From assembly GCA_030295235.1 (NCBI GenBank), contig AP026124.1, positions 2,232,001 to 2,296,000 of the forward strand: DNA of 64,000 nucleotides. Reading direction: 5' to 3'. Numbering within the stretch: the first letter of the stretch is position 1; each line of letters begins with the position of its first letter. Of the stretch, positions 77 through 37,923 are shown piece after piece. The position numbers and the translations under genes were made by a program. The notes under the pieces are model-generated. The model ran no database searches. It was not told where the DNA came from and saw nothing but the letters and a program-made list of their open reading frames with translations. The DNA comes from Fistulifera solaris. Its lineage: Eukaryota.

Positions 77-277
77 TCAAGGGGGAGGACGGGGGCGAGG
101 CTCGCGATACACGAGCTCTAAACTTCTTTCCATTGCGTTCGATGGAGCCAAATAGGAAGTCGTGAGGTCTGAAGAAATGGGGCGTGTGTGCCAGTGTCCC
201 AAGGCGATATTGATGAATGATAATATGAAGGCGGCGGTAGCTAAGAGCAAATACGGTAAGAAACTCCGTCTGATCAT
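77..277 (-). CDS. Possible N-terminus of a secreted or membrane protein running off the window start
   Basis: MIRRSFLPYLLLATAAFILSF is a hydrophobic leader, divergent from the protease gene. The ORF ends at a C-run, which may be a frameshift. No recognisable domain. Confidence 0.3.
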   Translation of the reverse strand: MIRRSFLPYLLLATAAFILSFINIALGHWHTRPISSDLTTSYLAPSNAMERSLELVYREPRPRPPP

Positions 278-8290: not shown

Positions 8291-11200
8291 TTACGTAAGA
8301 AAATCAGGATTCTCGCTGAAAACTAGACTCCCGATTTGTTCGTGTAACGACACTTCTGCCTTTTCGTCCAACTTGTCGTAATGATGGTTCAGGATGTTGC
8401 ACAACTCCTGTAAGGCTCTACGTGGCTGCCCCGCTTGTTTGTAGTGATTCGCCTGTTCCAACTTCCTATTAATCATCTCGCTGTGTTGGGGTCCCGTTCG
8501 AACTTCGTTGCTGGAGACGTTCTCGTTCGCATTTACGTGACTGAGTGGATAGTCTGCAATGATCTCGTCGCCCGGGGTGGACACAGCCTCAAGGCCGGTT
8601 GCTGATAAAGTAGAATTACTTGTAATTATTTCAGCAGAGAGGCGATGGCTTTCTTCATCAATACCACTACTAGGCACAGCAGCAGGCTTGCGCTCGTCTT
8701 CGACATTACTGGAGTGGGGACCACGCTGGAAACTGCTAGGAACAGTAGCAGGTTTGACGTCTTCTGACTTGAGTTGAATGCCGCCGCTGACAACAGCCTC
8801 GGATTTGATAGCTGCTGGCTCTTTCTTGACAGTAGACGAAAAAACAGGTCCACCAGATAGACTGAAATCATCGTCAGAGCCAATATCAATAATTTCTCTC
8901 GGCTTGGACACTGGAACCCTTGGTGCATTTAGTGCAAAATCATCAAACTGGAACACCGGTTTTTGGATGGACGATTGCGTGACTGTAGGTTTCGTTTCGA
9001 CCCGTTTCGGTTCCGTGCGCACTGCCGGTACGTGAGGTCTCGTCTCTGTGGCGAACGGCTTTCTGTCGATGGGAGCTTGAGGCGTGTAAGAAAGATTTCT
9101 GGCGAAATTTCGTTCGACACTTGCAAGCATCTCGATAACTTCGTCTCGAGAAGTCGTTGAGAGAAAGCGATCATAAGGAGACGATGAGGGAAAAGTATCA
9201 GAGTCTCGTGGTTTATGTCCACTCGACATTAGATGTTCCATTCTTCCCATCATTCCAAGCCCTGCCAACTCCGGAGTCCATGACATTATCAAGAATGTGA
9301 CGGGGTTGCATACATCGGTAGGTACGGAAGAAAACGCTAGTTTTGTGCCGTCGTGGCCTTCTTCGATAGCGGCAGTATCCGAGGTCTTGTAAAACACATC
9401 GTGACGCGAAAGCCCGAGAACGTTTCTGAACTCGCGAACGAAATCAAAATTACTTTGCGAACAATCGTTCCCTTCTGCTTGAGCCTTTTCTAAAGTAGGA
9501 CACTCGCCTGGTGGAGCCAAGTTGAACATTTTCGAGAGCTCGCTTCGCTCAAAGTATCGTTGCACTTCATCTCCAATTGTCAATACCACGCGGCGAATGC
9601 CGTCCTTGTAAAGCTGTCGCTCGTACATTTTCTCTTCGACTGTACCGGCTGTGATCATACGAAAGACAGTCACTTCTCGCGTTTGCCCAATGCGGTAGGC
9701 CCGACCAATAGCCTGGTCATCTTCCGATGGATTCCATGATGGGTCAAACAAGATGACTCGATCGGCCCCAGTGAGAGTAATTCCGACACCTCCCGCTTTC
9801 GTCGACAACAAAAAGACCTTCTGCAGACTCTTTGGGTTATTAAAGTCATCCACCAGTTGTTGTCGCACGCTTTCCTTTGTATCCCCATCAATGCGCGATA
9901 CGCTAAGATGGAGCTTCCCAAGTAACGCTCGCTGAATAATGTTCAACATCTTGGTGCTTTGCGAAAAGATGAGAATCTTGTGACCTTGATCCGTCATTTT
10001 CTCGACCAAATGCAGCATGGTTTCTAGTTTCGCACTTTGCTCGATGGTTCTGCGCAAATCGGGCACCTCATATTCTTCTTCGTACAGTGCTGGGTGCCCA
10101 CACAGCATCTTCATTCGAGTAATCGCTGCCAATACAATAGCGGTTTCACCTTCTCGAAGAGAACGCAAAATCGATCTTTTATTCAACAGAAACTCGTTGT
10201 ATAGCTCGCGTTGCTGCTCGGACAGATGCGACCAAACAACAATCTCGGTCTTGGTCGGAAGTAACTCGCGCAGGATATCAAATTTACGACGCTGCAGCAA
10301 GAACGGTCGAAGAACTTCTTGCAAGTTCTTGCTTCTGTCGTCACCACGCTGAATGATGTATTCGGAGGCGTTCTTGTCGCGTGCAGCATCAATGATTTTG
10401 ATGTAGGCGTATTTGAACGTCGAGAAATCCCCCAAGAGTCTTCCTGCCGAAATCCAGTCAAAGATTGTCCATAGTTCCTGTCGTCGAACGTCGAAAGTGA
10501 GACCTGCTAACTCGTCTATTTCACATAAAATAATCAGTGCGCACCTCTACGTTGTTCATGATCGGCGTCCCCGTGAGCATAATGCGCTTCGTCTTGTTTT
10601 TACAGATGCTTTGACAACAAGCGTGTGTTTTCGTGCGACGGTTTTTAATTGTGTGTCCTTCATCCAAAACCACGTAATCCCAAACATCTTTTGCACCTCC
10701 CAGGAACAGATCGGTGCACTTTTCCACCATCCCGTAGCTGGTAATGACGAGTTGCGGTCGTTGGGATTTGCTGCGTCGGCTGTCAACCATTAGTGTCAGT
10801 CGTTGTCGTCGTTGGGCGGTTTGTCCCGTTCCAGCACACAGTATTACTTACGCCGCCAGTGCATCTGCCAAGATTCGTTTTCGTTGCAATGGCGAATGAT
10901 CGGCCGACATGACTTGCACCATGGCAATCGGTACACAGGCCAGCAACACTTTGGAAGCTTCTCGTTCCCAAGAACGCAAGACCGATTTGGGAGCCACCAC
11001 GAGAGCATTGCAGATCGTTCCGGCGTTCATTAATCCTCCCAAACACGTCAATGTCGTGAAAGTCTTGCCCATTCCCATCTCATCTCCCAGCAATCCTCCA
11101 CCGCGATGATACAAGCTCGCCATCCAACTGACTCCTTCCACTTGATGGGCAAAGAGTTTTTGATACAAGCTGCGGGGAATACGGAAATCGGGAAACTGAA

Positions 11201-23418: not shown

Positions 23419-25166
23419 ATGAACAAGTCGTCCGTACCGTTCGCGGAGGACTGGCCGGTGCAAGCCGACGATCCTCTCGAGATGGCACTGGATCAACCCT
23501 TTCTGCCGACCCACGATGCACTCAAAACATGCTCTGGAAATGATATTCATCTCGTTAAAAGCGCTGCGAATTCCGCCAATCGATGTTTAGCCATCTTACC
23601 CGGTTTGCTAGCCTTGCATCCGCCCAAGACAACGGAAAACAACCACAAAACCACAAGTACCGCAGACCATCCCGACACATCCGAAAAGACACGGACGCGA
23701 AAACAGCTTCCAAACCCGAAGCCATTGCTTTGGGTGAAATGAAAGGGTTATTATCGACCGACACCCCTACGCTGCGTATGGGTTGTATGGAACTGCAGGG
23801 ACAACGCGTTCAGACAACTTCCAAATTTTTGGTGCTGACCCTTCAGCCCAAAAAAGAAACGCGTGGTTTGCAAGCATATTTTTGATTCGGTCGTTCTGTT
23901 TGGTCAAGCGCAAATTAAAAAAGCTCCTCAGGAAGCACCTGCATTACCGCAGCCCTGGGTACATTACGGTGGGTCCGCGCGGGCGGGGATCAATGGTACG
24001 AATGTAGCCTACCGTTTACCTAACGTCTCGAAGGAAGCCGCAGTCAAGCCCCGCGTGGATCCAACCAAACCCATCACACCCAAAGTACTTGAAAAGAGAA
24101 ACAGCGCGAAGAATTGAATGACGATGATTCCGAAAGTGATCTAAGTAGTTTGAAGGATGCGAACGACGGAGATGATTTTCACATGGACATTGTACCTTCC
24201 TCGTTGGGGCGCCGAGCGAGTTCGCAACGGAAAGTCAAAGCACCTGTCAAGTATTTAGAACGAGAACTGGAATCCAGTGAAAGTGAGAGCGAAGAAGAAA
24301 CGCCCGTGAAACGAGCCCCTCGTGCTATTAAGAAAACCACCGAGTCGATGGCTGAGAAGGATGATGGGGTTGTTGTTCCACCGAATAGTCAGCCATCTTC
24401 AACGCCAGCTTCCCGACATCACGCGAAGGCAACTTCTAATAGATCATCTAGTGATAGTGAAGACGATTATGTGCCCTTGAAACGAGCCGCTCGAGATAAG
24501 AAGACCTCGGATGGGAAGGTGGATAGAAACGCAGAGAATTATGCTGTCGTCGTTGAACCACGGCCTTCCTCGACACGTGCGGCCTCCCAACGCCCATCTG
24601 TTGTGAAATCAGGTGATAAGAGAAACGATAACTCGAAGGCACCGAAACGGGTCGCGAGTTCGAAGAAAATTACCGACGAATCATCTGACGAGGAGGAAGT
24701 CGTCGAGGTACTGTCAAGCAATCCGTCAGCCTCGCTCCGTGCCCCGCGAGGAAAGCAAAATGCAGCTGACGCCGTTCGAAAACAAAAGGAAGACTCTAGG
24801 GATGAGGTTGTCGTAATAGATGGTGATAAATCTACTCAATCTCCACGCAAACGAAAGTCACCACCGGTCACACAATCCCAAGACGACATCGATGACGTGG
24901 AGAATGATCCAAGCGTAGCAGAGGATAGTGATGACGATTTCGAAGCTCCAATGAAATCTAGTTTGGCAAGAAAGAGCAAAAGCGTGCCTGACTTTAAGGC
25001 ACCGCCAGCGAAACGTCCACGGGCCTCTTCAGGCGCCATGGACTCCTTGGTCTCGACTGCCACGACGCCGACTCGACGTCGTCGACGTACTGGAACTACA
25101 CCATCCCCGTCCAAAAAGTCCGCCTCGACCACTTTCTTTCAATCTTCGAATGACTTTTCATTCTAA
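23419..25166 (+). CDS. RHL1-like DNA-binding protein (topoisomerase VI accessory) with long disordered C-terminus; frameshifted
   Basis: KTCSGNDI..RCLAILPGLL..LGEMKGL.TDTPTL..MELQGQRVQTTSKFLVLTL..VCKHIFDSVVLFG follows the plant RHL1 core pattern from memory (GKDII..RFLFSFPGLL..IGDL..L.TKNPILY..MKLFG..Y..LTLQF..C.D.FDNMIVF). Confidence 0.65.
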
Positions 25167-25471
25167 TGTTGTAAACGTCTATATTTGAACAGTGTGGTCA
25201 ACGCTTGTCGCAGCAAATGGCACGGCACTCATTATATTCTTACCTTTGTCGAGCGTCCCTGCAATCGAGCTAGATGTGGCTGGAATTGCCTCTCGTCATG
25301 GCTATTTAACAAATGAATTGACGAAACAATTCGAACTAATTTTTGTGTCGATGTTCATCGCATACATTAATGTTTACATCATCAACGCTACATATTTGCA
25401 TTCTTTCAATCTTATCATTTTCTCACTAATTACATTGATTCGGCCGCCTGTTCTCATTGTTCGTACTGCTG

Positions 25472-26638
25472 CTATCGTGACGAAAGGAGAGACGGACTGT
25501 GCGTCACAGTTAAAGCCGAGCAATTGACAAAGTCGTGCAACAAAGGTGTGTAGCCCGTCAACCAACTTTGTGTCGCCTCCACTTGTTCCGGTCCGTAGGC
25601 TTGTAAGAATTGGGATTGTTTCGTAGTTGTGACGACGCCCTTGTGGAACGTTTGTGCGGCCCGGTGCAATTGAAGAAAATCCGTTGGAAACAGTATATCA
25701 CAGTGTTGATCGGCGTTGGGCGTTAAATAGCAAAGATGATCACAATCATTCATGTCGGTAACGAGAGGTTCACCAGGAGCCCAAGTCGAGTGGCGATGGT
25801 GACTGTACAATTGATTTGGTTCGGGCAAATGATCAAAATCCATAAATAGCAATTGAGTAGCCGATGGATGTTCCAGAATTTGCTGCAATAAACGCAAGGC
25901 CACGGTGGGGAACCATGTGACCGGTCTTCGGTGATGCCCAAGGAACTGTGACACCATTTGCTGCAGTAAGGGGTCCGTAAGAGGGACAAAAACTTCGTGC
26001 CGTGTTCCATCTGCCGTATGATGGACTTCGGCTTGTTCGACGCTCTGTGCACCGGGTCGGAAGCGAATCTTGTCATGCGGAAGATTATCGAGTACTTCCA
26101 GTGCTAATACAAAAGTGGTGGTATCTGCTGGGGCGTCGGGAATCAACGAGGAGCTTTGCTCGATGGGCTGTTCGGCGACTTGTAATAGGTCCAGTTGACG
26201 AAAATTCATCTTGTCGTGATGTTCTTTTGCCACCGTTTCTTGTTGGAGTTCCAACAACGTCGGAGAACTATCCACTAGCGTATAATGTGTCAGCCGGTCA
26301 TACACGTCCGGTGCTTGTCGTTGCAACGCTAGCAAAACACCATTCGCATTAGTACCTCGACCTCCGCCCAGTTCGACAATTTGTAGCTTAGAAGAAGTCC
26401 CCGCATGATACGCAATGAAATGAGCTATCGTATTTGAAAAGTAAGGCTGAAAGAGTTCGACGGGTGTCAGCCATTGCCCCGCCGTTTGTCGATACAATGT
26501 TTGGTAGACGCGCTGCCAATGCCATTCGCCCCAGAGGGATCGAAAATCAATACGACGACTCGCCGCACCGACGATGGCAGCGGAGGGTTGTGCGTAGTAC
26601 GCGGCTAGCTTTTTGGCAATGTAGTGTCGCACGAGCAT
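25472..26638 (-). CDS. NDUFAF7/MidA-family SAM-dependent methyltransferase
   Basis: GQWLTPVELFQP, QIVELGGGRGT, LALEVLDNLPHDK and DILFPTDF. Confidence 0.85.
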   Translation of the reverse strand: MLVRHYIAKKLAAYYAQPSAAIVGAASRRIDFRSLWGEWHWQRVYQTLYRQTAGQWLTPVELFQPYFSNTIAHFIAYHAGTSSKLQIVELGGGRGTNANGVLLALQRQAPDVYDRLTHYTLVDSSPTLLELQQETVAKEHHDKMNFRQLDLLQVAEQPIEQSSSLIPDAPADTTTFVLALEVLDNLPHDKIRFRPGAQSVEQAEVHHTADGTRHEVFVPLTDPLLQQMVSQFLGHHRRPVTWFPTVALRLLQQILEHPSATQLLFMDFDHLPEPNQLYSHHRHSTWAPGEPLVTDMNDCDHLCYLTPNADQHCDILFPTDFLQLHRAAQTFHKGVVTTTKQSQFLQAYGPEQVEATQSWLTGYTPLLHDFVNCSALTVTHSPSLLSSR

Positions 26639-27506
26639 GGAGTCTTCGTTATTATGAGTTATGGCTAGACAACATGGTGTTTATTAGTCTCTAGAGGCAT
26701 GCATTATTGCTTGCTTATTGATGGCAAATAATCAAAAATGTGTTGATGTGCTGCGACGAGAGCTGCGAGCGAGAGACTGTGGCACCATTTGCATAATGTC
26801 GCATTACTATTAGTATTAGTACGAAGTATGAAGTATTAGCTAAAATGCAGACGACCTGTTTAAAAAAATTCTTTTAATCATTAGAAAAGAGGTAATTCTC
26901 TGTTTATCAATGCCCATTTAAGTCCGCTGTTAATAACAATAGATTAAAATAACAGTTATTAGTTAATACATCCGTGCTGTGATTTCAGCTGTTTTGATGA
27001 AAAAATGACATTAGTTGGTACCGTACCTTAAACTAAGTCACGTTTTTGCTATCACATCAATTGTAGGCGGTTATTTTAATTCAGTCCCGAAACAAAATAG
27101 TGCTGCGGTGCGAGAACATTCTCGCTTTTGTCTCGTTTGTTAGAAAAGGCTGGTTGTGATGCGACGGTTTTAGAATACTCCTTGCCGACTTTCACCGAAA
27201 CTTATTGAGGGAAACGATTTTCGTGGATTTTCTATTAGAATTCCTTGTATCGGCAAATGCCGAAAGAATGCTTTGCGGAACGAATTCGGGGACCGACAGT
27301 GTAAAATGAATGACGGTGCGGATTTTTCAGGGACCAATGTAACACACTTTTCGAGAGAGGTCACCTTTCCTTAACCGAACAAAATTGGATGTTCGGTTCT
27401 CCCAAAGGACTACAAACTGTTTCGCCGGAGAAAATTGTTGGATACGAAGATTGTTTGCGGTATCTTTCTAAATATCTTGTCGACAATTCACCAATAAGCA
27501 CCCAGG

Positions 27507-28124
27507 ATGGAGTCCGTTGACACTCTTCATCAGAAAGGAAGACTTTATTGTCGTCAAATCGAAAAGCATTTGGAAAGCACCACTGTAAACATCGATGACT
27601 TTGATCTTAAGGAATGTCTGGATAAGGCCAGGACAACTTTTCAACGAGGTATCGACATGGCATTTGAACAGGGATGCACGTACTCTGGGGCAACTTTACG
27701 CCTGTCCTGCGCTTCTCTTCTTGCTCGAGTGTGCATGTCGGGACGCATATCCTCGGACGCGTATCAAGAAGAAGGATTGTCTATGCTGAACTGGATCATC
27801 ACGCACGAAGGCGCAGTGGTACATGACGTCGTAGCCAGGGCTCGCACGGAAAAGCTACAACTGGAGAATGCCGACATTGTGCAGATTGTTCAGGCGATGA
27901 GCGTTGTTTCGGGATACGATTACGGCGGGCCTTGGTCGGATCATTGGTATGAATGCCCCAACGGGCATCCGTATTTCATCGGCGAGTGCGGACGTGCTGC
28001 TTTTGAGTCGAACTGCATCGAATGTGGGGCGCGGATCGGAGGAATCGGACATAACTTGCTTGAATCGAATCGCCCAGCGAACAGTTTGATATCCCGTGCT
28101 CGGGCCTCGATTCCCAAATTGTAG
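27507..28124 (+). CDS. Stand-alone RZ-finger protein (helical region + RNF213/ZNFX1-type RZ finger)
   Basis: HWYECPNGHPYFIGECGRAAFESNCIECGARIGGIGH. Intact 205-aa ORF, collinear with the C-terminus of the downstream ZNFX1-like gene. Confidence 0.85.
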   Translation: MESVDTLHQKGRLYCRQIEKHLESTTVNIDDFDLKECLDKARTTFQRGIDMAFEQGCTYSGATLRLSCASLLARVCMSGRISSDAYQEEGLSMLNWIITHEGAVVHDVVARARTEKLQLENADIVQIVQAMSVVSGYDYGGPWSDHWYECPNGHPYFIGECGRAAFESNCIECGARIGGIGHNLLESNRPANSLISRARASIPKL

Positions 28125-29178
28125 TTAACTGTGATGTTGATAGTTTTCTATTCGATATTGTTTATCTGTAAAACGTCGTCAAAGTAGCGTCAACTCCAAA
28201 ATAGAGTTAAAGTCGTTTTATGAGTATATAGTCATCACTCAAAAGGTTGAACCAAGGGGAGGTTGACCGTTCATTAAGAGAGACAAGGACAGAGGAACCT
28301 AAGCTATAAAATTTTTACCTTGGTTAACATTTGAGTACCGATACGATAGAAATGGCTTTGCGTAATTTCGACTTATTCGACGCGAAGATGCGAGACGATG
28401 ATACGCTATCTCGACGAGTCTTTGTTGTGTTCAAAAGGTTTAACGTTACAGACTCGCTCATCAAGATGAAGGGCCAATGCTTTTTCAATCTCGCGCCTTC
28501 CCGACTCTGGAGCTGTTGACGCTGAATGAATAGCTCGACTTCTCGAAAGACTTGGTTCGAAAAGCTTATGATTGACCTTTCTTCGCAGCACAAAGAGAGA
28601 GTTTCTTCTACGAGATAAGCTGATACATCCTAGTTTTATGTGTTGTCCGTTCCGTCGGCGGTAGGAAGTGAGTGACGAGAACATCAACCACGCCACGAAC
28701 ACATAAAATGAGTACAGTTCGCAAAAAAAACGTTAGGGAAATTTTCGTGGACCAATCAGAGGTGAACAAATGATATGCTGAAATATCTTCACCTAAAAAC
28801 TACACGGAATATTCGGTGCCAGCGAGATCTTTTCTCCTTTTCGACAAGGATGCAAACGCGACCGACGTACTCGGCACGTTAAACGATTTGCCGCAAATTC
28901 GTTTCATTCTGATTTTGTTTTACTGGAACCTCACCGGAGACAGCATCGCACGAAATAACGGGTCTGAATTAAGTCTACGCTATATCATTACAAAACTAAG
29001 TTGGGCTCTCTGGCACGAGTCTATCGAATCTTTTCAGTCAAAGAGTAATCGCAAGGTAAACAGCTGAGCTGTCTTACGTTTGGTTTCAATCCGTGGTGGA
29101 ATTGAGCTCAATTCTCTTTCCCCGCTCTTGTTCAGCATTCCGTCGGCCAAGAAGCGTCCAACGACGGCGGAGGACGCC

Positions 29179-32100
29179 ATGGGAAAGAAGCATTGTGGCG
29201 GGCGTGGGCGCGGGTCCTCGAATGGCAGACAAGGGGGCAAGACTTTAACCGCATCACGCCCACAGTCTTCCGGCGATATGTCGTATCGTCGTAGAAGGGT
29301 TTTCGATGCTCTTGTCAAAAAGAAACTGCTACTTTCGAGGGGAAAGCTCAAGTGTTACGTTTTATTGAAGGAATGGAGAGCTTCTCTTCCAAAGCTGAAT
29401 TGATGGACAAGATCGAAGATCGCCGGGCCCATGGCATGAAGCGCATTCGTGAAATGTTAAGCTACATGAATTCCATTGAAGATGTTGATCAAATTCTCGT
29501 CCGCATACTTCGCTTGTTTCTCGATAAAGAGCTTGACAAGCCTATGTATCTGCCCAAGCGCAACAAGATTCTCATGGCGATCTATATCTCCCCATGTTTG
29601 ATGGAGACACTCGTCGCACGAGATGCCGCCTCGCAGCTTCATCAAAAGGCCGCGGATTATCTTTGTTTATTTCTGCAAGAAATCTCCAAAGTTTTCATGG
29701 AGGCCAGGAAATCTGAGTACGTCATGACGATGGCAAAGGCTTTACGAAGCCGTGGAGATGTGGATGCTGCGACCCTTTGTGCAATCCTACTGGTGGATGA
29801 ACAGGTCGCCATCGACGAGAATGCTTTGTACTTAAAGACTACGAGTGACAAGACATCGGTTTGCTGGGTTACAGATAATATACCGCCAGGAGGAAGACAC
29901 GACAACGACGAGCGGAATTTCCGTGACATTCAAATTCTCCCGACGACAGATGAGCTTTGTTGCAAGGCTAAACCATGGCTTCCTTTACGTGACCAAAATG
30001 CGATAATTAATGATCTTGCAACGCGCTTGCTAGACAAGCATTTTCGTCTTTTAAGAGAAGATGCTATATCTACTATCAAGGAAAATATTGAGCAACAAAC
30101 GCGATCGTGGAAAAATGCCAGAATCATAGACTTGGACTTCACAGGCTTCGGAAAGAGCAAGCTATTTACCTTTTTGGTCCAGCTTGATTCTCGTCCAGGA
30201 GGCAACCCCAAGTGGGAAATCTCCCGTGCACTCATGCAAGGGTCGGTTATCGCTTTGTGTATAGACGGAACACCTCAACTGATGGGCAAAATTTCCCATC
30301 GAGATCATGAAACTCGTGGCGCCTGGCTCAGGCACCCCCAAGGCCCTATTGTGGGTGTGTTCTTCGAGCCACACACGAAAGACTTCCAAAATGCGTTGAT
30401 TGATGTTTTGAAGAATCTTCCTTATAGTAAGCACGAGTCTAACGAAATCATGCAGGAGGAGCCAACTAGATCGAAACACAAGAAGAGCAGTGGAAAAAAT
30501 CAGAAGAACGATGGTGGAAATAAGGGAAAGACGGCAAAGAAGGGCGGCGGAGCCAACCATCAGAGTCACTGCACATCATCCAAAGCTTTCCATGAGTTGC
30601 CGAAGTACGACTTGGTCGAAGCGTCATCTTCTTTTTTTACCTGTCAACCGATTCTGGCTTCGCTTCAATCAAAATATTCACTACCATTTTTGGAAGAGCT
30701 TTGTAGCTCTTCTCCGCTGAGAATTTCTCACCCTCCTGACTATCTTCCGGATACGCTTTGTATGCCTAAGGGGAAAAATTTTAATGGATTTTGTTGCAGC
30801 ATATCTTCGTGGTCGTCTGCTGATCTTGTAAGCAACACGAGCTTGGATTCAAGTCAAGCAGATGCTCTTCATCATGCCTTCACGTCACGAGTCTCGCTTA
30901 TACAAGGTCCGCCAGGAACAGGAAAGACTTTCATTGGTGCTTTGATTGCTCGTGTGATTCGAGAGAATACAAATCAATCCATTCTTTGCATCTGCTTTAC
31001 TAATCATGCTCTGGATCAATTCCTTGAACACATGCTTGACGCAGGAGAGACTAGTATAGTTCGTTTGGGAGGGAGATCGAGATCCGAAAGATTGAGAGGA
31101 TACGGTCTTCGCGATTTGGTTCATAGCAAGGCACAGAAAACCAACTCTACTCAGATGAAACGAATTGATGCCCAGCTTCATTCTAGACGTGAAGAAATCC
31201 AGAAGTGCATCAAGACGTTAAAAACACAGATTAATTGGCAAAGCCCCCTTGGAGGTATTCAGCAGTTTCTGGAAGATGAATATCCAGACATATATGAATG
31301 TTTTCCTGAAATGTCGGAAGACGCAGATGGGTTCAGGACGACGGGGAAGAAAGGGAAGGCATTCAAAAGGGACGAGCTATGGACACGATGGATTAAGGGA
31401 GAAGCGTTTCCTGACTTTTTGCGAGACAGACTCAATCCGTTTGGGCCCGATGTGTTCGAGGACTTTTGGGCTATACCTTACAACGCTCGGCTAGATCTTG
31501 TAGATGCATGGAAGAGTGATATATTTGCGGAAACTATCGAAAAGCTGGAGGATGCTTTGACTGACTACGGTGCTTTGGTGCGCGAGCGAGATGCGCTAAA
31601 ACAGACAGAAGACTTACAGATTTTAAAAAGTGCTCGAGTCATTGGTGCCACGACCACAGGTGCTGCCAATTTCAAGGACTTGTTAGCTTCAAAAGCGTCC
31701 AGGGTCATCATTATTGAAGAAGCGGGCGAAGTTCTTGAAAGTCACGTACTGTCGGCTTTACATGCGGACTCGACAAAGCACTTAATTATGATCGGCGATC
31801 ACAAACAACTTCGTCCGAAGGTTGAAAATTACTCCCCTTTCGACTGTATCAGGGCACGGCTATGATCTTGATTGCTCACTTTTGAACGGCTTGTTTTGTC
31901 AAATTTACCTTCTGCGACACTCAACGTTCAACACAGAATGCGTCCCGAGATATCACAGTTTATTCGGTCTCAAACATATCCGCAGCTACTGGATCACAGT
32001 TCGGTTCGTGAGTTTCCCCACGTGAAAGGCGTCACGCAAGATGTAGTCTTTATTGATCATAAAGTCCTGGAGGACGGGACAAGCGCCAAAGACGATGATT

Positions 32101-34781
32101 TGGGGAAGACTAAGTCGAATACCCACGAAGCCGAATTGTGTGTCGAGATCGTTCGATTCTTTCTGTTGCAGGGTTATGCACCGAGTCGAATTGCGATCTT
32201 GACACCATATCTTGGACAGCTGATGAAAATACTACGCTTGGTGAGAGGTAGGCTCCGTGAAGCAATAGCGTGTGTTAGTGAACAAGACCAGCGCGATCTT
32301 GAGGACATCGGAGGCGAAAATGAACCTGTCAATGACGAAGTCGTTGATAGAAGTGTTAGGTGCTCCACGGTCGATAATTTTCAAGGAGAAGAAGCTGATA
32401 TAATTATCATCTCACTGGTAAGATCCAATAATTTTGGAAACGTCGGTTTTCTCAAGGAGCCACAACGAGTGAACGTTCTCATGTCACGTGCGAAGCACGG
32501 AATGTTTATTGTTGGCAACGCTTCCGCCTTGCGAAATTCGAAAGCCGCGAAGAAGGTATGGGATCCCATTCTTGACCTATTGGAGTCGGAAGGAAGGCTA
32601 CTACCGGGACTTCCTACTTACTGCTCGCTCCACCCCGACGACGATCCCATTGTGCTCTCAAAAATGGAAGATTGGAGAATGTCTAGACCGAATGGTGGTT
32701 GCAGCAGGCCGTGCCACTTTCGTATGGAATGCGGTCATAAGTGCTCTTCCAGCTGTCATCCGAACGACAAGGACCACAAACTGCTTCAACGGAACTGCTG
32801 CAAACCTTGCAAGCGAGTGCCATCGGAATGTCCGTTCGGTCACCAGTGTAACAAGTTGTGTAAAGAAGATTGCGGCCCATGTGATGCTACTGTCGGCAGC
32901 GTTCGATTAAGTTGTGGTCACTCAATGGACAACGTTCGGTGTCACCAAGTTTGCAACGACAAACAAGTCGAGACGTTGACGAACCTTTGTACGCATTCTG
33001 TGTCACACGTCTTCACTGCCTGTGGCCATATAGCTCAAACTAGTTGCGGAAACGCCAATCGTCTAAGCCCTCTTTGTCCGTTGAAATGTGGTAAAGTGAT
33101 TGAGCTCTGCGGTCACCCCTGTACGCGGGATTGTGGGTTCTGCGAAAGCGATCATTTCTGCGGACAGAAATGCGAGCGCGTTTTGTTTTGTGGCCATTTA
33201 TGCGGACAGCAGTGTCACGGCAGCGACGAATGCCCTCCTTGTTCTGAACAGTGTGCAGTAAAGTGCATCCATTCGGGTTGCCCAAAGAAATGCCACGCGC
33301 CGGTGAGTCCACCACGTTTCCCAGTGTCTATCTTGTGTTATGGTGTGTCTTACATTAGTCCGAACAGTGTGCTTCTTGCGTAGAGGACTGTGAATGGGAA
33401 TGTGAACACCAGGGCCGTTGTGATGTTGTTTGCGGTGCTCCTTGTACAAGGCTGCCATGTGACAAGGTAAGAGTAACGTTAGCATCAAAAATAATTGCAT
33501 GCATTCAACCCATACTTAAGCTCATTGTTGTTCTTATTCCAGCGTTGCCAGAAGAAGCTTGAATGTGGACACATTTGCCCGTCGGTCTGCGGTGAACCAT
33601 GTCCTTCAAAGACATACTGCCAAGAATGCGGAGAAGATTGGGTCAAGTCTCATGTCCTCGATATGATTGAATTTCACGACTACAAAGACCATGATGTAGA
33701 TGACGACCCTATCGTTGTTCTCCCCTGCGGTCATTTCTATGCAAGTAGCACAATGGATGGGCTTCTGGCAATGTCTGAGGTGTATGAGGTGTGCCAGCGA
33801 ACTGGCAAGTTCATTGGATTAAAGAGTCTCATGGATGCCAACGTCAATGAAAAGCCGGCTGTTTGTCCGGACTGTAGATCAGTAATCCACTCGGTGCGGC
33901 GATATGGGCGGTTCCTTAACTTGAAAGGATTGAGGAGCTTGGAACGCAAGCATATGTTTGTTGTTCGGAACAAACTGGCAAATCTACATCGTATTCGCAA
34001 GGAAGGTACAAAGCACGATGAATCAAAGTTTTTGAAACAGTTGCGTGAGCTTGAGAAGACAATTATGACCAGCCCTATGAGAAAAGTCAAGAATGCGTGT
34101 TTGTCGTCTGCTCATTCGATGGAAGTGCCTTCGCCTCCAGTCATCCCGCTGCTGGGAACATTGGAGCTTAGAGGACAAGTTTATTCCGATCAGATTGAAA
34201 AACTATTGAAAGTTGACCGCGCGAGTGCTGCGGATGAAGTGAAGAATAAAGGGATAGATATGGTCCAGGAATGTTTCGAGCTGGCATCAGAGACGTATCG
34301 AAGAGGAATTGCGATTGCGGATGGATCCAAAAGCATGAGATCTGGTGCCAACTTGCGACTGGCATTTGCTTCGCTTCTGTGCAGAGTCTCCAGGTCGCGT
34401 CGTATTCCAGGGGATGGATTGAAAGAGGAAGCAGATGTAATGATGGATTGGATTGTTGCGAACGAATCTGTTCTTGGAAATGAACTTGTGACCAGGGCCC
34501 GCAGGATGAAGCAGGATTTGGATAACCGCGACATCCTAGAGGTTGTAATGGCGATGCAAATCGAAGGAGGTTATAACTTTGGAGGAAGTTGGTCCAGCCA
34601 CTGGTTCGAATGTCCCAACGGACACCCCTATTTCATTGGAAATTGTGGAGGCGCCATGCAGGAGTCCAACTGCCCCGAGTGCGGTGCCCGAGTGGGAGGA
34701 ACTAGCCACACGCTCATTGCATCAAACCGCCCTGCCAATGATTTGATAGCACAAATTAGGGCTGCTGCACCGCAGCTTTGA
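29179..34781 (+). CDS. ZNFX1: ZNFX1-like SF1 (UPF1-like) RNA helicase with NF-X1-type zinc fingers, RING-like region and C-terminal RZ finger; introns 33303-33367 and 33467-33542
   Basis: PPGGRHDND..FRDIQILPT, LIQGPPGTGKT, CFTNHALDQFLE, IIIEEAGE, IGDHKQLRP, QHRMRPEI, TVDNFQGEE and RVNVLMSRAKHG. Repeated CGH.C...C fingers, LPCGH..CPDCR, and HWFECPNGHPYFIGNCGGAMQESNCPECGARVGG. Frameshifts at ~29320 and ~31835. Confidence 0.92.
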
Positions 34782-35143
34782 ACGCAATAATTCTTGGTCT
34801 TCCACATTTGTAATTGACTTGAGAAACTTCTGAACTTGTTTCCTATTATTTGATCGTTGCGTCTAATCTGAGATCTAAATACGATTTACGTGTTTGCCTT
34901 CATACTGCTATGATTCTGCTTCGTCTGTCCTCAGATTCTTGCTAAAAGGGGTATGCCTGTCCGTCACCCGGTATGTTTTGAACCGCGGAAATCGCGTCAG
35001 AAAAAGTATTCATTCAATGCATCGCTTATCTTTGTCAGAATAAAATCGTCTTGTCAATAACATCGAAATAGGCTATAGCGAGTGCTCTTTTTAGGCGAAG
35101 AAACAGATAAATAGCTTCTCGCCTGTGCGGTTTGTTATTCAGA

Positions 35144-37923
35144 ATGAAGTGGCGACAACGGCGGAGGAGCGTCTGCTGTAAACTCCTTTTGATGTTTGCT
35201 CTCCTTCCCACAATTTACACTTTTGTCGCCTTGCAGCGTTCGCAAAAACGCGCTTCATTGCATCCTTTGAATGGCATTCGAGGTTTTCGCTCATGGCTAG
35301 AATCCACTCATCCCGACGCGATTTATCCGATCCGTCAATTGCAAGACCAGGACAACTTCGATCACGTCTTGATCGATCTGAATCAATTTTTACACGTTAT
35401 TGTGCGAAACAGTCGATCCGACGATCATGCCTTGGTGTTACTGATGAAAGAATTAGATTTACTCATACAAATGGCGACTCCAACCAAGTCTCTGGTCTTG
35501 GCTATTGACGGACCTCCCAGTGCCGCGAAATTAGCCACACAACGGCAACGCCGTCTGGAGAAAAATCATCAAGGTAGAACGAACTTTGAAACAACTCAAG
35601 CAAAGTCCCCTTCGCGTCGCTCGTCGAAAGCGTTCCATTGTAGCGGACACACGAGTACTGGCCTTGACACCCTCTACGAATTTCATGAAATCTGTTGAAA
35701 AGGCCTTGTTGTATTGGACTTGGCAACGATTGAGCAACCGCAATTCGTGCTTACCGGAGGGCGTTCATGTATATATTAGTCCGAGTTCCGTACCTGGAGA
35801 AGGAGAAGTCAAATTATTGGAATGGTTGTATCGACATACGTCTCGTCCTCATCAAATCAATGAGTCAGTGGCTTTCTTAGGCGGTGATGCCGATTTGGTA
35901 GTCGAAGGCCTGATGCTGAATCGACCCAATGTGTTTTGTTTGCTGCCGCATGTGAAGCGACAGTTTTCCTGTGTAAGTGTTTGGCAGCTTACGCGTGATC
36001 TAGCGCGAAAGGCGGGAGTACGATCAGTCGACGAGCTGCCGCAGCGAAGACTTGATTGGGTTCTATTGATTCTGTTGAATGGGAATGACTATGTCAACAA
36101 ATTGCGTGGCTCGAGTGGCTTTAATCGTGTAATGAAGGCGTACAGCAAAGTCTTGCGTCGTCATCCCAATGGCGGCCTGGTCGATATAGAGTCACTTGAC
36201 TTTCAGCTGGATTTTTGCATCGAGTTCTTTCAAGAAATATCTCACAATTTGATTCCCTTTGGCGAACCCGATATTCCTTACAGTACCAATAGTTTCTTAA
36301 GCAAACTCTATCAATACGCGGCGGTAGGCTATTTGCCACAGCCGGTGACTTTCGAGATCAAGTCGGACTTCATTGATGAAAACAACGGATTGAATACAAA
36401 GAAAGAGGACGACGAAGAAGCTTTCGATTACGAATCTTTTTCTGAACTAAACGACGACGACGACGTCTCAAAAAGCGGATTCGATCTTGGATACGATGAA
36501 AGCGACGAAAATGATACCACAGGCAATAAGATTGAGCTAGTGCTGCAATTGGGGGATCCTGACTCGGATGATTTTTATGAGTTCTCGGCATGGGTCCCTA
36601 TAGGACATTGCTTGAAGGGGGCTAAGCAACGATTGGCCTCCATTGCTTTACGGGAGCTTTTGGATACCGACGAGGTAGAATCGGGGCTGGATGACATGAA
36701 AGTGAGAGGGAAAGTGATTGAATGTGATGTGCCCTTATATTTGTACGGGTTGTTGTGGACATTACAAACTTATCAAGACGGTACATGTGCGGATTATGGA
36801 TTCCAGTATGGCGGACGTCGCTTGTCACCGTCAGCCAAAGATTTAGTGGAATACTTCGTGCAGGCGAAAGCGGCCGGTCGGTCCGTTGGTATTTCTTCTC
36901 TTCGCAAAGGCTTTACACAGCCTGCTACAGCTGGAATCGCTTGCTTGGCAGCCTTGCCCTTGCAAGCAAAAAGACCATATTGCGGAGCCGTACAAATTCC
37001 TCGATGATGAATTTGTGGAATTTACTTATCAAAGCTGCGTAAATGAAACGTCGCTTACTTTTGATATGGAACTGTTTTCGCAACTCTGCAACGACGAAGT
37101 AAAAAAAACGCGCTATGTCGGATGATCGATTTCATTTTTCCGAACCTAAAGCACACTCTGCTAACTCAATAGGGAAGGGACGACGGATTATAATGGGAGA
37201 CCATTCCTGGACTGTGTTGACAAAAAAAGATAAAAGCCTAGTGCATCCATTTCAGCCACCAGAACCTTTCTTGGATCGTCTATCAGAGTTATGGCATAAC
37301 AATTATATCCAAGCGCAAAAAATCAAAGCAGCCTCTTCGCCACGACCTCGCTCCGTATGGAACGAGACAACAACTCAGGATCACCTAAGTGTTGCAAGTA
37401 TGCATCATACAATGGATCACTGTGAAAGAAAGGTTGTACCCTGTATGAATTTACTTGGAAAAGACACACTTGTAGAAGATGTCATCCACGTCGAGGCTTA
37501 CCGAATGTCTTTAAAGACAGCGAAGACCATGAAGAATAGTAGGATATCTCGAAAGGAAAACCCCCGAAGATAAAAGATGCAACTACCCACTTTTCTTTGA
37601 GAGATGGGGTGACAGCGTCAGCTTGCTTGAAGCAGTTAGAAGATGCGCGCTACGTTGGTAAAATAGAATGGTCTACAAAGTCCAGTTCGCACAACAACGC
37701 CTTATCCGAAGAGAGGTGGACTCTTGTCATCAATAAGGGAGGCTGCCTAATTGACAACGCTGTTTTTCAACGCGTACGGGAACCAACAATGACAAAACAG
37801 TTTGTAAAGCAAGAATTATCGAGCCAAGCCCTTACTCACATTCTAAGAAAAGCAAATTGGGCCAACTTATCTTACCAGGAAGTTCGAAGTTTGGTTAAGG
37901 CACAGATGTCGGTGACAGAGTGA
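35144..37923 (+). CDS. XRN-family 5'-3' exoribonuclease with N-terminal targeting-like leader and dsRBD-like segments; frameshifted
   Basis: GIRGFRSWL, IDLNQFLH, AIDGPPSAAKLATQRQRR, LTPSTNFM, PGEGEVK, GGDADL, LNGNDY and YLYGLLWTLQTYQDG. Confidence 0.85.

Follow-up and report, generated by a model that had tools for sequence, protein, structure and literature searches.

RZ fingers have been studied in ZNFX1 and RNF213, where they terminate giant or multi-domain enzymes. In human ZNFX1 the finger uses C1860 as nucleophile and H1881 as base, and an isolated RZ fragment auto-ubiquitylates with UBCH5B (10.1101/2025.10.14.682297); the same text predicts that the N-terminal helix of this fragment binds ubiquitin, and considers that ubiquitin may pass from the Miz-like domain of one protomer to the RZ finger of another. 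According to a second report, a thioester is formed on C1860, the Z-RING residue F1575 is needed for E2 binding, and in full-length human ZNFX1 both E3 outputs branch from the RING-like domain, on which all E3 activity depends (10.1101/2025.09.05.674436). The same report describes the E2 site of RNF213, a protein of ~5,200 aa with AAA modules, as a C-terminal domain that is absent from ZNFX1. The authors of the first report draw an analogy with RBR-type E3s, in which a RING-bound E2 delivers ubiquitin to the catalytic Cys of a second zinc module; the likeness is one of working only, the fold being unrelated. In the cryo-EM maps the catalytic loops of the RZ fingers of ZNFX1 and RNF213 are not resolved (10.1101/2025.10.14.682297), and both reports leave open whether an RZ finger functions without, or in trans to, a RING-like domain (10.1101/2025.10.14.682297, 10.1101/2025.09.05.674436).

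The stretch analysed here (the window) comprises 64,000 nucleotides of contig AP026124.1 of the diatom Fistulifera solaris. Scanned in six frames, it contains exactly two RZ motifs, one in a short ORF and the other at the end of a ZNFX1-like gene (finger cores in Table 1). We think it probable that the short ORF is a stand-alone coding gene, which descends from a duplicated 3' terminus of a helicase/E3 gene of the ZNFX1 family and has been preserved by purifying selection in six lineages or more, with RZ-type ubiquitin transfer as its likely activity. Our literature search found no paper dealing with RZ proteins that stand alone or with diatom ZNFX1.

Table 1. Features of the short RZ gene and of the neighbouring ZNFX1-like gene (positions in the window).
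Feature	Position	Strand	Details and basis
In-frame TAA, 9 nt 5' of the short-ORF ATG	27495..27497	+	Sequence
Stand-alone RZ protein CDS	27507..28124	+	205 codons plus stop, starts with ATG; ORF and Pfam
Predicted TPR-like helical domain, residues 1-121	27507..27869	+	AF2 helices 4-23, 34-54, 58-78, 84-99, 106-120
Predicted short helix, residues 122-132, just 5' of the finger	27870..27902	+	AF2; counterpart of the predicted ubiquitin-binding helix of human ZNFX1
RZ finger core, C150 to H182	27954..28052	+	Motif scan; RNF213 alignment; AF2 strands 147-149, 155-157, 167-169, 176-180
Cys161 codon, counterpart of the human ZNFX1 nucleophile C1860	27987..27989	+	Spacing to H182 of 21 residues, as C1860-H1881
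Codon 165 (Ala)	27999..28001	+	Met in 96% of ZNFX1-type sequences; alignment
His182 codon, counterpart of the general base H1881	28050..28052	+	Spacing, alignment
ZNFX1-like gene	29179..34781	+	~1,820 codons; ~1 kb downstream of the short ORF
Exon 1: N-terminal region, SF1 helicase core, Cys/His-rich stalk	29179..33302	+	AAA_11 5.5e-30, AAA_12 8e-36
Inferred intron (GT..AG)	33303..33358	+	Sequence and frame change; alternative acceptor 33367; bridged by no RNA contig
Exon 2 (Cys-rich)	33359..33466	+	Frame 33359..33562; X2 contig covers 33384-33464
Intron, 76 nt, GT..AG	33467..33542	+	One X2 contig (depth 5.1) joins 33464 to 33541, cut +2
Exon 3: RING-like domain, TPR-like domain, RZ finger, stop	33543..34781	+	Frame, conservation, model
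Putative RING-like single-zinc domain, no counterpart in the short gene	33705..33878	+	Conserved residues; predicted strands and helix
RZ finger core of the ZNFX1-like gene	34611..34709	+	Pfam PF20173, 82.4 bits, E 1.8e-23; motif

Compared by BLASTP with the last ORF of the ZNFX1-like gene (33663..34781), the short ORF shows 100 identities over 207 positions (48%), 65% positives and an E value of 2e-68. The match covers residues 6 to 205 of the short protein, and the homology begins at residue 166 of the neighbour's last ORF. By tblastn the homologous DNA extends from 27501 to 28121, the same extent as the short ORF itself, and the similarity to ZNFX1 thus ends at most two codons from its Met. 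The end-to-end alignment with the C-terminus of the adjacent gene was given correctly in the preliminary description, with its coordinates and quoted peptides, as was the open frame of 205 codons with its own ATG, which is preceded by an in-frame stop. Pfam returns only PF20173 (ZnF_RZ-type) for the short protein (residues 144-189, 78.6 bits for a cut-off of 27, E 2.7e-22) and no match to the SF1 (UPF1-like) helicase core; in the region 26400-29300 no remnants of the helicase, stalk or RING-like parts were found. The short ORF is derived from ZNFX1 and is not itself a ZNFX1, having neither the helicase nor the RING-like domain. The upstream regions of both genes are joined just by short two-copy repeats, of a kind that are often chance matches.

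The neighbour had been described as a full ZNFX1. It does possess the helicase and a C-terminal RZ finger, but as given in the window it is not one open frame, being broken by three 1-bp homopolymer indels (29316, 31834 and 31879/80). These indels are absent from the read-based contigs of the DNA run X1, and their correction yields a frame of 1401 codons from the ATG at 29179. The closest solved relative of the helicase is ZNFX1 (9q9z_A, 1.6e-47, versus ~1e-13 for UPF1). The stalk holds 37 Cys and 17 His in 251 residues, with one match to an ad hoc NFX1-type pattern; Pfam gives no NFX1-type zinc finger in it at E values up to 1. In the putative RING-like domain, located just upstream of the point where the short-ORF homology starts, D15, P16, L20, C22, H24, C68, P69, C71 and R72 are nearly invariant among 60 sequences. 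The best RING model, zf-RING_2, reaches 21.5 bits there (E 2.8e-4), under its cut-off of 27.3. The contigs of the runs X2 and X3 look like RNA because one of them carries a GT..AG joint. They leave the short ORF uncovered, and for 27100-28500 no RNA data set was listed, which speaks neither for nor against its expression. Named diatom relatives of the gene occur in Epithemia, Cylindrotheca closterium, Cyclotella cryptica and Thalassiosira. While the neighbour belongs to the ZNFX1 lineage nearest to the short protein, it differs from it by its size, its helicase, its Cys/His-rich stalk, its RING-like domain and a longer TPR-like domain.

Five further full-length short proteins of 198-209 aa (P0002-P0005 and P0070) were found, which with the window copy make six; these five are Logan-derived and could be paralogues instead of orthologues. 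Pairwise identity among the six is 46-81%. All begin with Met-Glu at one alignment column, in which no ZNFX1-type sequence has a Met. In a tree of 38 rows the short forms are monophyletic (UFboot/SH-aLRT 100/99) and lie inside a 100/100 clade with the ZNFX1 C-terminus of the window, P0069, P0197 and P0068; a quick tree of 72 rows places them in the same way. A profile of the six short forms, with 110 matches among 4040 candidates, scores its members at 346-412 bits, followed by P0069 (245) and P0006 (218), the rest being at 160 or below. P0006, the closest annotated relative (88% identical), is a partial form, a 113-aa model that starts at the counterpart of Met93. A metagenome scan added one distant locus (L001) among 139 pattern matches.

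We rejected as a stand-alone family the RZ-only entries of ~330-400 aa (from e.g. Seminavis robusta, Pseudo-nitzschia and Cylindrotheca fusiformis), in which Pfam finds PF20173 alone ("RZ-type domain-containing protein"). They start at an internal Met within the RING-like domain, like the 372-aa ORF at 33663, and four of them (P0011, P0047, P0067 and P0071) pair in the tree with full-length proteins of 1606-1785 aa; they are thus read as last-exon fragments of ZNFX1-like genes. Many RZ entries of 175-230 aa from more distant lineages (e.g. P0079, P0098 and P0061) start at or near an internal MEVPxPP and may for this reason be truncated calls. Fungal RZ-only clusters of the ESM Atlas may be similar, or may be fragments.

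Both genes of the window display the finger spacing C-x3-H-x6-C-x8-C-x2-C-x8-H reported for human ZNFX1. In the short protein C150, H154, C161, C170, C173 and H182 are spaced as human C1849, H1853, C1860, C1869, C1872 and H1881 in 10.1101/2025.10.14.682297, with C150, H154, C170 and C173 as zinc ligands, and all six residues are invariant in 62 sequences. Residues 144-183 also match the RZ finger of RNF213 (E 2.7e-10) with the six key positions aligned, while the short protein has none of the AAA modules of RNF213 nor its E2 site. The preliminary claim that all positions are kept in both copies holds for these six residues. It does not hold for the residue at +4 from the nucleophile: the Met that is 96% conserved in ZNFX1-type sequences, and is also found in RNF213, has given way to another residue in every one of the six short forms (A, A, A, H, G and V), so that catalysis may be altered or lost. 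Of the columns at least 85% conserved in ZNFX1-type sequences (n = 38), 20 are kept unchanged throughout the six short forms, and in 12 others P0070 alone deviates, having thus lost 12 otherwise conserved positions. To call the short protein catalytically complete was an overstatement: judged by its residues the finger would deserve the term, with its zinc ligands, nucleophile and base, but not the whole protein, which has no RING-like (Z-RING/Miz-like) E2-binding domain and has lost the Met at +4.

The AF2 model of the short protein (mean pLDDT 88.9, pTM 0.75) consists of six helices followed by the finger strands. The product would be a "mini-RZ" protein of ~23 kDa, predicted to comprise three TPR-like hairpins, a short helix, the RZ finger and a C-terminal helix. 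The best VIA-align matches are TPR or designed helical repeats over model residues 1-135 (Z 11-13); for this model and that of the ZNFX1 C-terminus they are generic TPR or helical-repeat matches only, with Z up to 13.0 and 14.6 respectively, a range common for helical repeats. Searched with Foldseek at E ≤ 0.001, the PDB yielded nothing similar to either model; the fold searches barely probed the RING-like domain and the finger. After the helix 122-132 the model shows four short strands, for which the fold searches, filled by the helical domain, returned no RZ-finger structure. In the pre-finger helix M131 is invariant and A130 at least 90% conserved in 62 sequences; V128 is invariant among the short forms only, Val being found in 41% of the ZNFX1-type rows. 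By analogy with the human helix (10.1101/2025.10.14.682297), this helix probably binds ubiquitin. The diatom protein resembles the human RZ finger in the identical spacing of zinc ligands, nucleophile and base and perhaps in a helix, predicted ahead of strands that may form a small beta-sandwich. It differs from human ZNFX1 in being naturally encoded by a gene of its own, with neither helicase nor stalk nor RING-like domain, in its three predicted TPR-like hairpins and in the replaced Met.

The short protein could be a non-catalytic regulator or decoy, its pre-finger helix binding ubiquitin or its TPR-like domain binding a ZNFX1 partner, and would in that way rival the C-terminal ZNFX1 module or cap it. 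The missing E2-binding domain and the variable residues at +4 are consistent with such a role, as are the TPR-like fold, a typical protein-binding scaffold, and the derivation of the gene from the ZNFX1 lineage that it adjoins and could regulate. Nevertheless six short forms as divergent as these all keep the four zinc ligands, nucleophile Cys and base His, a pure binder would have no need of nucleophile and base, and the isolated human fragment is active in vitro (10.1101/2025.10.14.682297). We regard a regulator devoid of catalysis as unlikely, and retain the stand-alone gene with a probably active finger as the favoured reading.

In a second alternative, which concerns the 5' end, the short ORF would be the terminal exon of a larger gene, the exons before it having been overlooked or lost to misassembly. 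A CAG resembling a splice acceptor directly abuts the ATG and leaves some room for a spliced upstream exon; 1-bp assembly indels exist elsewhere in the window, and introns may have been ignored by the ORF or gene callers behind the related proteins. Against this, all six short forms share the initial Met, no ZNFX1-type sequence has one in that column, and the homology ends within two codons of it. The next gene upstream is a minus-strand methyltransferase gene 870 bp away, and on the + strand of these 870 bp there is neither an ORF of 70 aa or more nor anything similar to ZNFX1. The 35 longer proteins compared (360-2000 aa) are all at most 51% identical to the short form, i.e. no N-extended relative was found, and between 26999 and 29316 the listed differences from the X1 contigs include no indel. 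A missed upstream exon is very unlikely.

Maintenance of the short ORF was assessed against the ZNFX1 C-terminus, as the preliminary description had suggested. The pair shows a dN of 0.41, a third-position identity of 39% and an omega of ~0.16-0.21, a value which is rough and upper-range, dS being saturated (NG86 and YN00 fail; LWL85 and ML give a dS of 2.0 and 2.6), and which averages both paralogues. In substitution-only simulations of neutral drift (2000 trials each) the ORF with its ATG survives in 4.1% of trials at 75% amino acid identity, 1.2% at 66%, 0.3% at 60% and ~0.1-0.2% near 50%. In the flanks all similarity to ZNFX1 is gone while that of the ORF is kept. The idea of an old duplicate maintained as a separate helicase-free gene is borne out by the single clade, the common Met, the absence of N-extended relatives among the proteins searched, the low omega and the neutral survival of at most 4%. 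That the ORF is a dead relic of a partial tandem duplication, open by chance, fits a partial copy adjoining its parent gene, and is close to refuted by six intact copies of common start and length, by neutral drift, which spares the frame in at most 4% of trials per lineage even when indels are left out, by an omega of ~0.2 and by the loss of similarity in the flanks alone. Intact in several related lineages, the short ORF is, as far as sequence can tell, a real stand-alone gene and not a relic.

For this stand-alone gene we propose the following origin and mode of action. The 3' end of a ZNFX1-family gene, of the lineage now 1 kb downstream, would have been copied, leaving behind helicase, Cys-rich stalk and RING-like E2-binding domain. 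By analogy with the RZ fingers of ZNFX1 and RNF213, Cys161 would accept ubiquitin as a thioester from E2~Ub, and His182 would help to hand it on. Lacking any domain that recruits an E2, the protein would need either a direct and weak E2 contact, as reported for the isolated human fragment in vitro (10.1101/2025.10.14.682297), or charging in trans by a RING-type domain, most obviously the RING-like one of its ZNFX1 paralogue. The choice of partner or substrate would fall to the TPR-like domain. A bolder scheme, which we find doubtful though conceivable, is that the two-step ligase of ZNFX1 would here be split by nature: the mini-RZ would be charged in trans on RNA-activated ZNFX1 assemblies and carry ubiquitin to TPR-chosen targets, as the diffusible output arm of a diatom RNA-surveillance or antiviral system. 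In this RBR-like relay the two modules, unlike those of RBR-type E3s, would be on two gene products. The roles suggested in the preliminary description, as effector, decoy or trans-regulator of ZNFX1 and as half of a candidate two-gene antiviral module, are likewise conjectural.

A mini-RZ of this size would lend itself, as a minimal object, to structural and enzymological work, and would naturally test whether an RZ finger works without, or in trans to, the E2-binding RING-like domain. It would also show that ZNFX1-type modules have been remodelled by duplication in a photosynthetic protist lineage.

The short ORF and the last ORF of its ZNFX1-like neighbour (372 aa, 33663–34781) are identical at 100 of 207 positions (48%, BLASTP E 2e-68) over residues 6–205 of the short protein. 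Both exceed the cut-off (27) of Pfam PF20173, with 78.6 bits for the short ORF and 82.4 bits for the neighbour's C-terminus, and a six-frame scan of the 64 kb reveals two RZ motifs in all. This likeness is far beyond chance and the coordinates of the ORF are confirmed; the end-to-end alignment claimed in the preliminary description thus stands.

Features around the short RZ gene (nucleotide positions in the window) and structural elements predicted for its product (residues)
Feature	Position	Strand	Remarks
327-aa ORF, Ser/Lys/Glu/Asp-rich	24183–25166	+	no Pfam family match
Methyltransf_28 gene (putative SAM-dependent methyltransferase)	25472–26638	-	E 9.1e-28
Stand-alone RZ ORF	27507–28124	+	205 codons, ATG start
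ZNFX1-like gene	29179–34781	+	
Intron 1 of the ZNFX1-like gene	33303–33358	+	inferred from GT..AG and frame
Intron 2 of the ZNFX1-like gene	33467–33542	+	one contig of the public run X2 joins 33464 to 33541, GT..AG ends
XRN-type 5'-3' exoribonuclease gene	35144–37007	+	two ORFs separated by the 35561 indel, XRN_N 2.3e-17 and 8.5e-11
Helices of the short protein	residues 4–23, 34–54, 58–78, 84–99, 106–120		AlphaFold2 model
Short helix	residues 122–132		AlphaFold2 model
Strands	residues 147–149, 155–157, 167–169, 176–180		AlphaFold2 model
C-terminal helix	residues 192–201		AlphaFold2 model

An in-frame TAA lies 9 nt 5' of the ATG of the short ORF. The 870 bp upstream contain no sizeable ORF on the + strand and are bounded by the minus-strand Methyltransf_28 gene. 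This gene and the short RZ gene are divergent, with the 870-bp intergenic region common to both. No indel distinguishes the window from the contigs of the public sequencing run X1 between 26999 and 29316, and the short gene does have, as claimed, its own ATG and no frameshift. All pieces of ZNFX1 were compared with 26400–29300 by tblastn: the sole match (27501–28121) is coextensive with the ORF, and the helicase, stalk and RING-like domain have left no remnant in this interval.

Relatives of the short protein were sought among 5.8 billion proteins at lengths of 112–359 aa (67 matches from 206 candidates). Four cover 99–100% of the query: P0002 (205 aa, 73% identical), P0003 (206 aa, 72%), P0004 (209 aa, 64%) and P0005 (207 aa, 58%). 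A representative search at all lengths (1541 matches at E <= 0.001, nine of them at E <= 1e-30) added P0070, which is 198 aa long and 51% identical end to end. All six short forms start with Met-Glu at one alignment column, where none of the ZNFX1-type sequences has a Met. A profile built from the six gives 346–412 bits to its own members, 245 to P0069 (a ZNFX1-type C-terminus), 218 to the partial short form P0006 (113 aa, 88% identical) and at most 160 to the other 102 matches. No N-terminally extended version of the short form was found, the best of 35 matches at 360–2000 aa being at most 51% identical. The distribution is narrow, i.e. six full-length members and one partial member in the 5.8-billion-protein collection.

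Among relatives with a named source, P0006 is the closest to the short form and P0069 (303 aa) to the C-terminus of the neighbour; both stem from NCBI/JGI-annotated records. Their longest contigs measure 18,031 bp for P0006 and 154,372 bp for P0069; if both belong to one genome, the two genes may be non-adjacent there. RZ-only entries of 330–400 aa were rejected as stand-alone proteins: they begin at an internal Met within the RING-like domain, like the 372-aa ORF of the window, and in the tree four of them each group with a full-length protein (P0011/P0203, P0047/P0212, P0067/P0222 and P0071/P0209). In more distant lineages, RZ proteins of 174–229 aa (P0079, P0098, P0061, P0107, P0094, P0130, P0101, P0110 and P0105) span roughly the stretch that the short form does, several of them beginning at or near an internal “MEVPxPP” motif. 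They could reflect gene calls cut short, or short forms that arose independently. A 172-kb metagenome contig (L001) carries at 10001–10231 a 77-residue RZ match, 50% identical to residues 123–198. It is not covered by any + strand ORF of 100 aa or longer and could represent a small terminal exon or a further short RZ gene.

To trace the origin of the short forms, a careful 38-row tree was built from the last 215 residues alone; it comprised the six short forms, the C-terminus of the window's ZNFX1 and 31 sequences hand-picked from about 220 proteins. All short forms fall in one clade (ultrafast bootstrap/SH-aLRT 100/99), nested in a ten-row clade (100/100) with the window's ZNFX1 C-terminus and the ZNFX1-type sequences P0069, P0197 and P0068; the tree does not resolve the branching order within these ten rows. 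The named diatom ZNFX1-like proteins are not among the ten. With 72 rows, those below 170 aa being left out, a quick tree gives the same two groupings with support of 99 and 100. Both nested clades argue for a single partial duplication of this ZNFX1 lineage, after which the short gene was inherited, and they bear out the proposal of an old duplicate of the ZNFX1 C-terminus. The short protein corresponds to the portion of the neighbour beyond a loop bearing a conserved “EVPxPP” motif. In the sister ZNFX1 lineage this motif is preceded by Met-Glu, and the start codon of the short gene may descend from that internal Met.

Identity among the short forms ranges from 46 to 81%. For the two paralogues of the window dN is 0.41 and identity at third positions 39%. 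The dN/dS comparison suggested earlier yields an omega below 1 (roughly 0.16–0.21), but this value is crude, since dS is saturated (about 2.0–2.6, two methods failing) and both branches are averaged. We also simulated neutral evolution of the ORF with substitutions only and no indels (2000 trials per level). At a mean amino-acid identity of 75%, the ORF and its ATG survive in 4.1% of trials; this share is 1.8% at 70%, 1.2% at 66%, 0.3% at 60% and 0.1–0.2% near 50%. Six intact copies are incompatible with drift. Some of the Logan-derived short forms could be paralogues; the constraint argument is unaffected either way. In the 56 ZNFX1-type rows, 38 columns reach a conservation of 85% or more; all six short forms keep 20 of these unchanged, P0070 alone departs at 12, and 6 differ otherwise. 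P0070 is the most divergent short form, having lost 12 positions otherwise kept in short and ZNFX1-type sequences; it retains all six zinc and catalytic residues, and may be drifting or changing function.

The AlphaFold2 model of the short protein (62-sequence alignment) has a mean pLDDT of 88.9 and a pTM of 0.75. Residues 1–135 match TPR-like repeats with VIA-align Z of 11–13, values that are common for helical repeats, and Foldseek returned no match to the model at E <= 0.001. In the model of the neighbour's 372-aa C-terminus (pLDDT 85.8) the TPR-like domain is longer, with matches over residues 89–310. By alignment, the zinc ligands of the RZ finger are C150, H154, C170 and C173, the nucleophile C161 and the base H182. 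These six residues align with RNF213 and are invariant in the 62 sequences, in agreement with the retention previously described, and their spacing is that given for human ZNFX1 in 10.1101/2025.10.14.682297. Other positions differ: 96% of ZNFX1-type rows, and RNF213 too, have Met at nucleophile +4, whereas the six short forms have A, A, A, H, G and V. At position 57, a conserved Ser (89%) is replaced by Cys in five of the six.

The neighbour is encoded on the same strand, about 1 kb further downstream. Its pieces contain the SF1-helicase Pfam domains AAA_11 (5.5e-30) and AAA_12 (8e-36), with the RZ finger at the C-terminus; it was called a full ZNFX1, but in the window as given the gene is split over several frames. 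Three public runs were compared with 24000–37500. X1 covers every bin evenly, in the manner of DNA. Set against the X1 contigs, the window shows single-base homopolymer indels at 24091, 26733, 26999, 29316, 31834, 31879/80, 35561, 36968 and 37101, three of which (29316, 31834 and 31879/80) break the ZNFX1-like frame and one the XRN-like gene. Applying these three changes by script restores 1401 continuous codons from the ATG at 29179. Introns thus do not account for the breaks, which, like the homopolymer indels in general, are assembly errors or allelic indels; gene calls on this assembly will come out fragmented. Some X1 contigs also show dense clusters of single-base differences (25624–32247), suggestive of a second haplotype in a heterozygous diploid.

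The neighbour's product has about 1,820 residues, and full-length named relatives of 1,578–1,785 aa occur in the diatoms Epithemia, Cylindrotheca closterium, Cyclotella cryptica and Thalassiosira, which makes it likely that the window, too, comes from a diatom. Against solved chains its helicase core matches ZNFX1 (9q9z_A, 1.6e-47) and UPF1 (about 1e-13). A Cys/His-rich stretch (37 Cys and 17 His within 251 residues) has no NFX1-finger Pfam match. The start of the last exon holds a conserved single-zinc set (C22, H24, C68 and C71); D15, P16, L20, P69 and R72 hardly vary across 60 sequences, and RING models score just under their cut-off (zf-RING_2, 21.5 bits vs 27.3). Position and residue pattern suggest that this RING-like domain is the counterpart of the E2-binding domain named “Z-RING” or “Miz-like” in accounts of human ZNFX1. 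The XRN-type gene is directly downstream, placing an RNA helicase/E3 and an RNA exonuclease side by side.

The short protein is without helicase, stalk and RING-like domain. According to 10.1101/2025.10.14.682297, an isolated human RZ fragment auto-ubiquitylates with UBCH5B and ubiquitin is bound by the helix preceding the finger; its authors propose that the Miz-like domain of one protomer may pass ubiquitin to the RZ finger of another. In full-length ZNFX1, mutating a Z-RING E2-binding residue abolishes all E3 activity, as stated in 10.1101/2025.09.05.674436. The human protein, with the same RZ spacing, carries an E2-binding domain that the short protein lacks. With human E3 activity dependent on the Z-RING, “catalytically complete” is true of the finger only, and not of the E3 as now understood.

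From homology, we infer that the short protein is probably a ubiquitin-transfer module. E2~Ub would charge Cys161, His182 would assist discharge, the pre-finger helix would hold the donor ubiquitin, and the TPR-like domain would bind a partner or substrate. Access of the E2 could be direct and weak, or in trans via a RING-type domain, for which the neighbour's RING-like domain would be the obvious candidate. The ESM Atlas contains Ascomycete RZ-only clusters, which could be analogous or fragments. Stand-alone RZ proteins, or ZNFX1 in diatoms, were not encountered in the literature searched. The RZ finger and ZNFX1 are already known, and databases list diatom ZNFX1-like genes under the label “RZ-type domain-containing proteins”. 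The new element is a conserved protein, derived from ZNFX1, that combines a TPR-like domain with an RZ finger and occurs naturally on its own.
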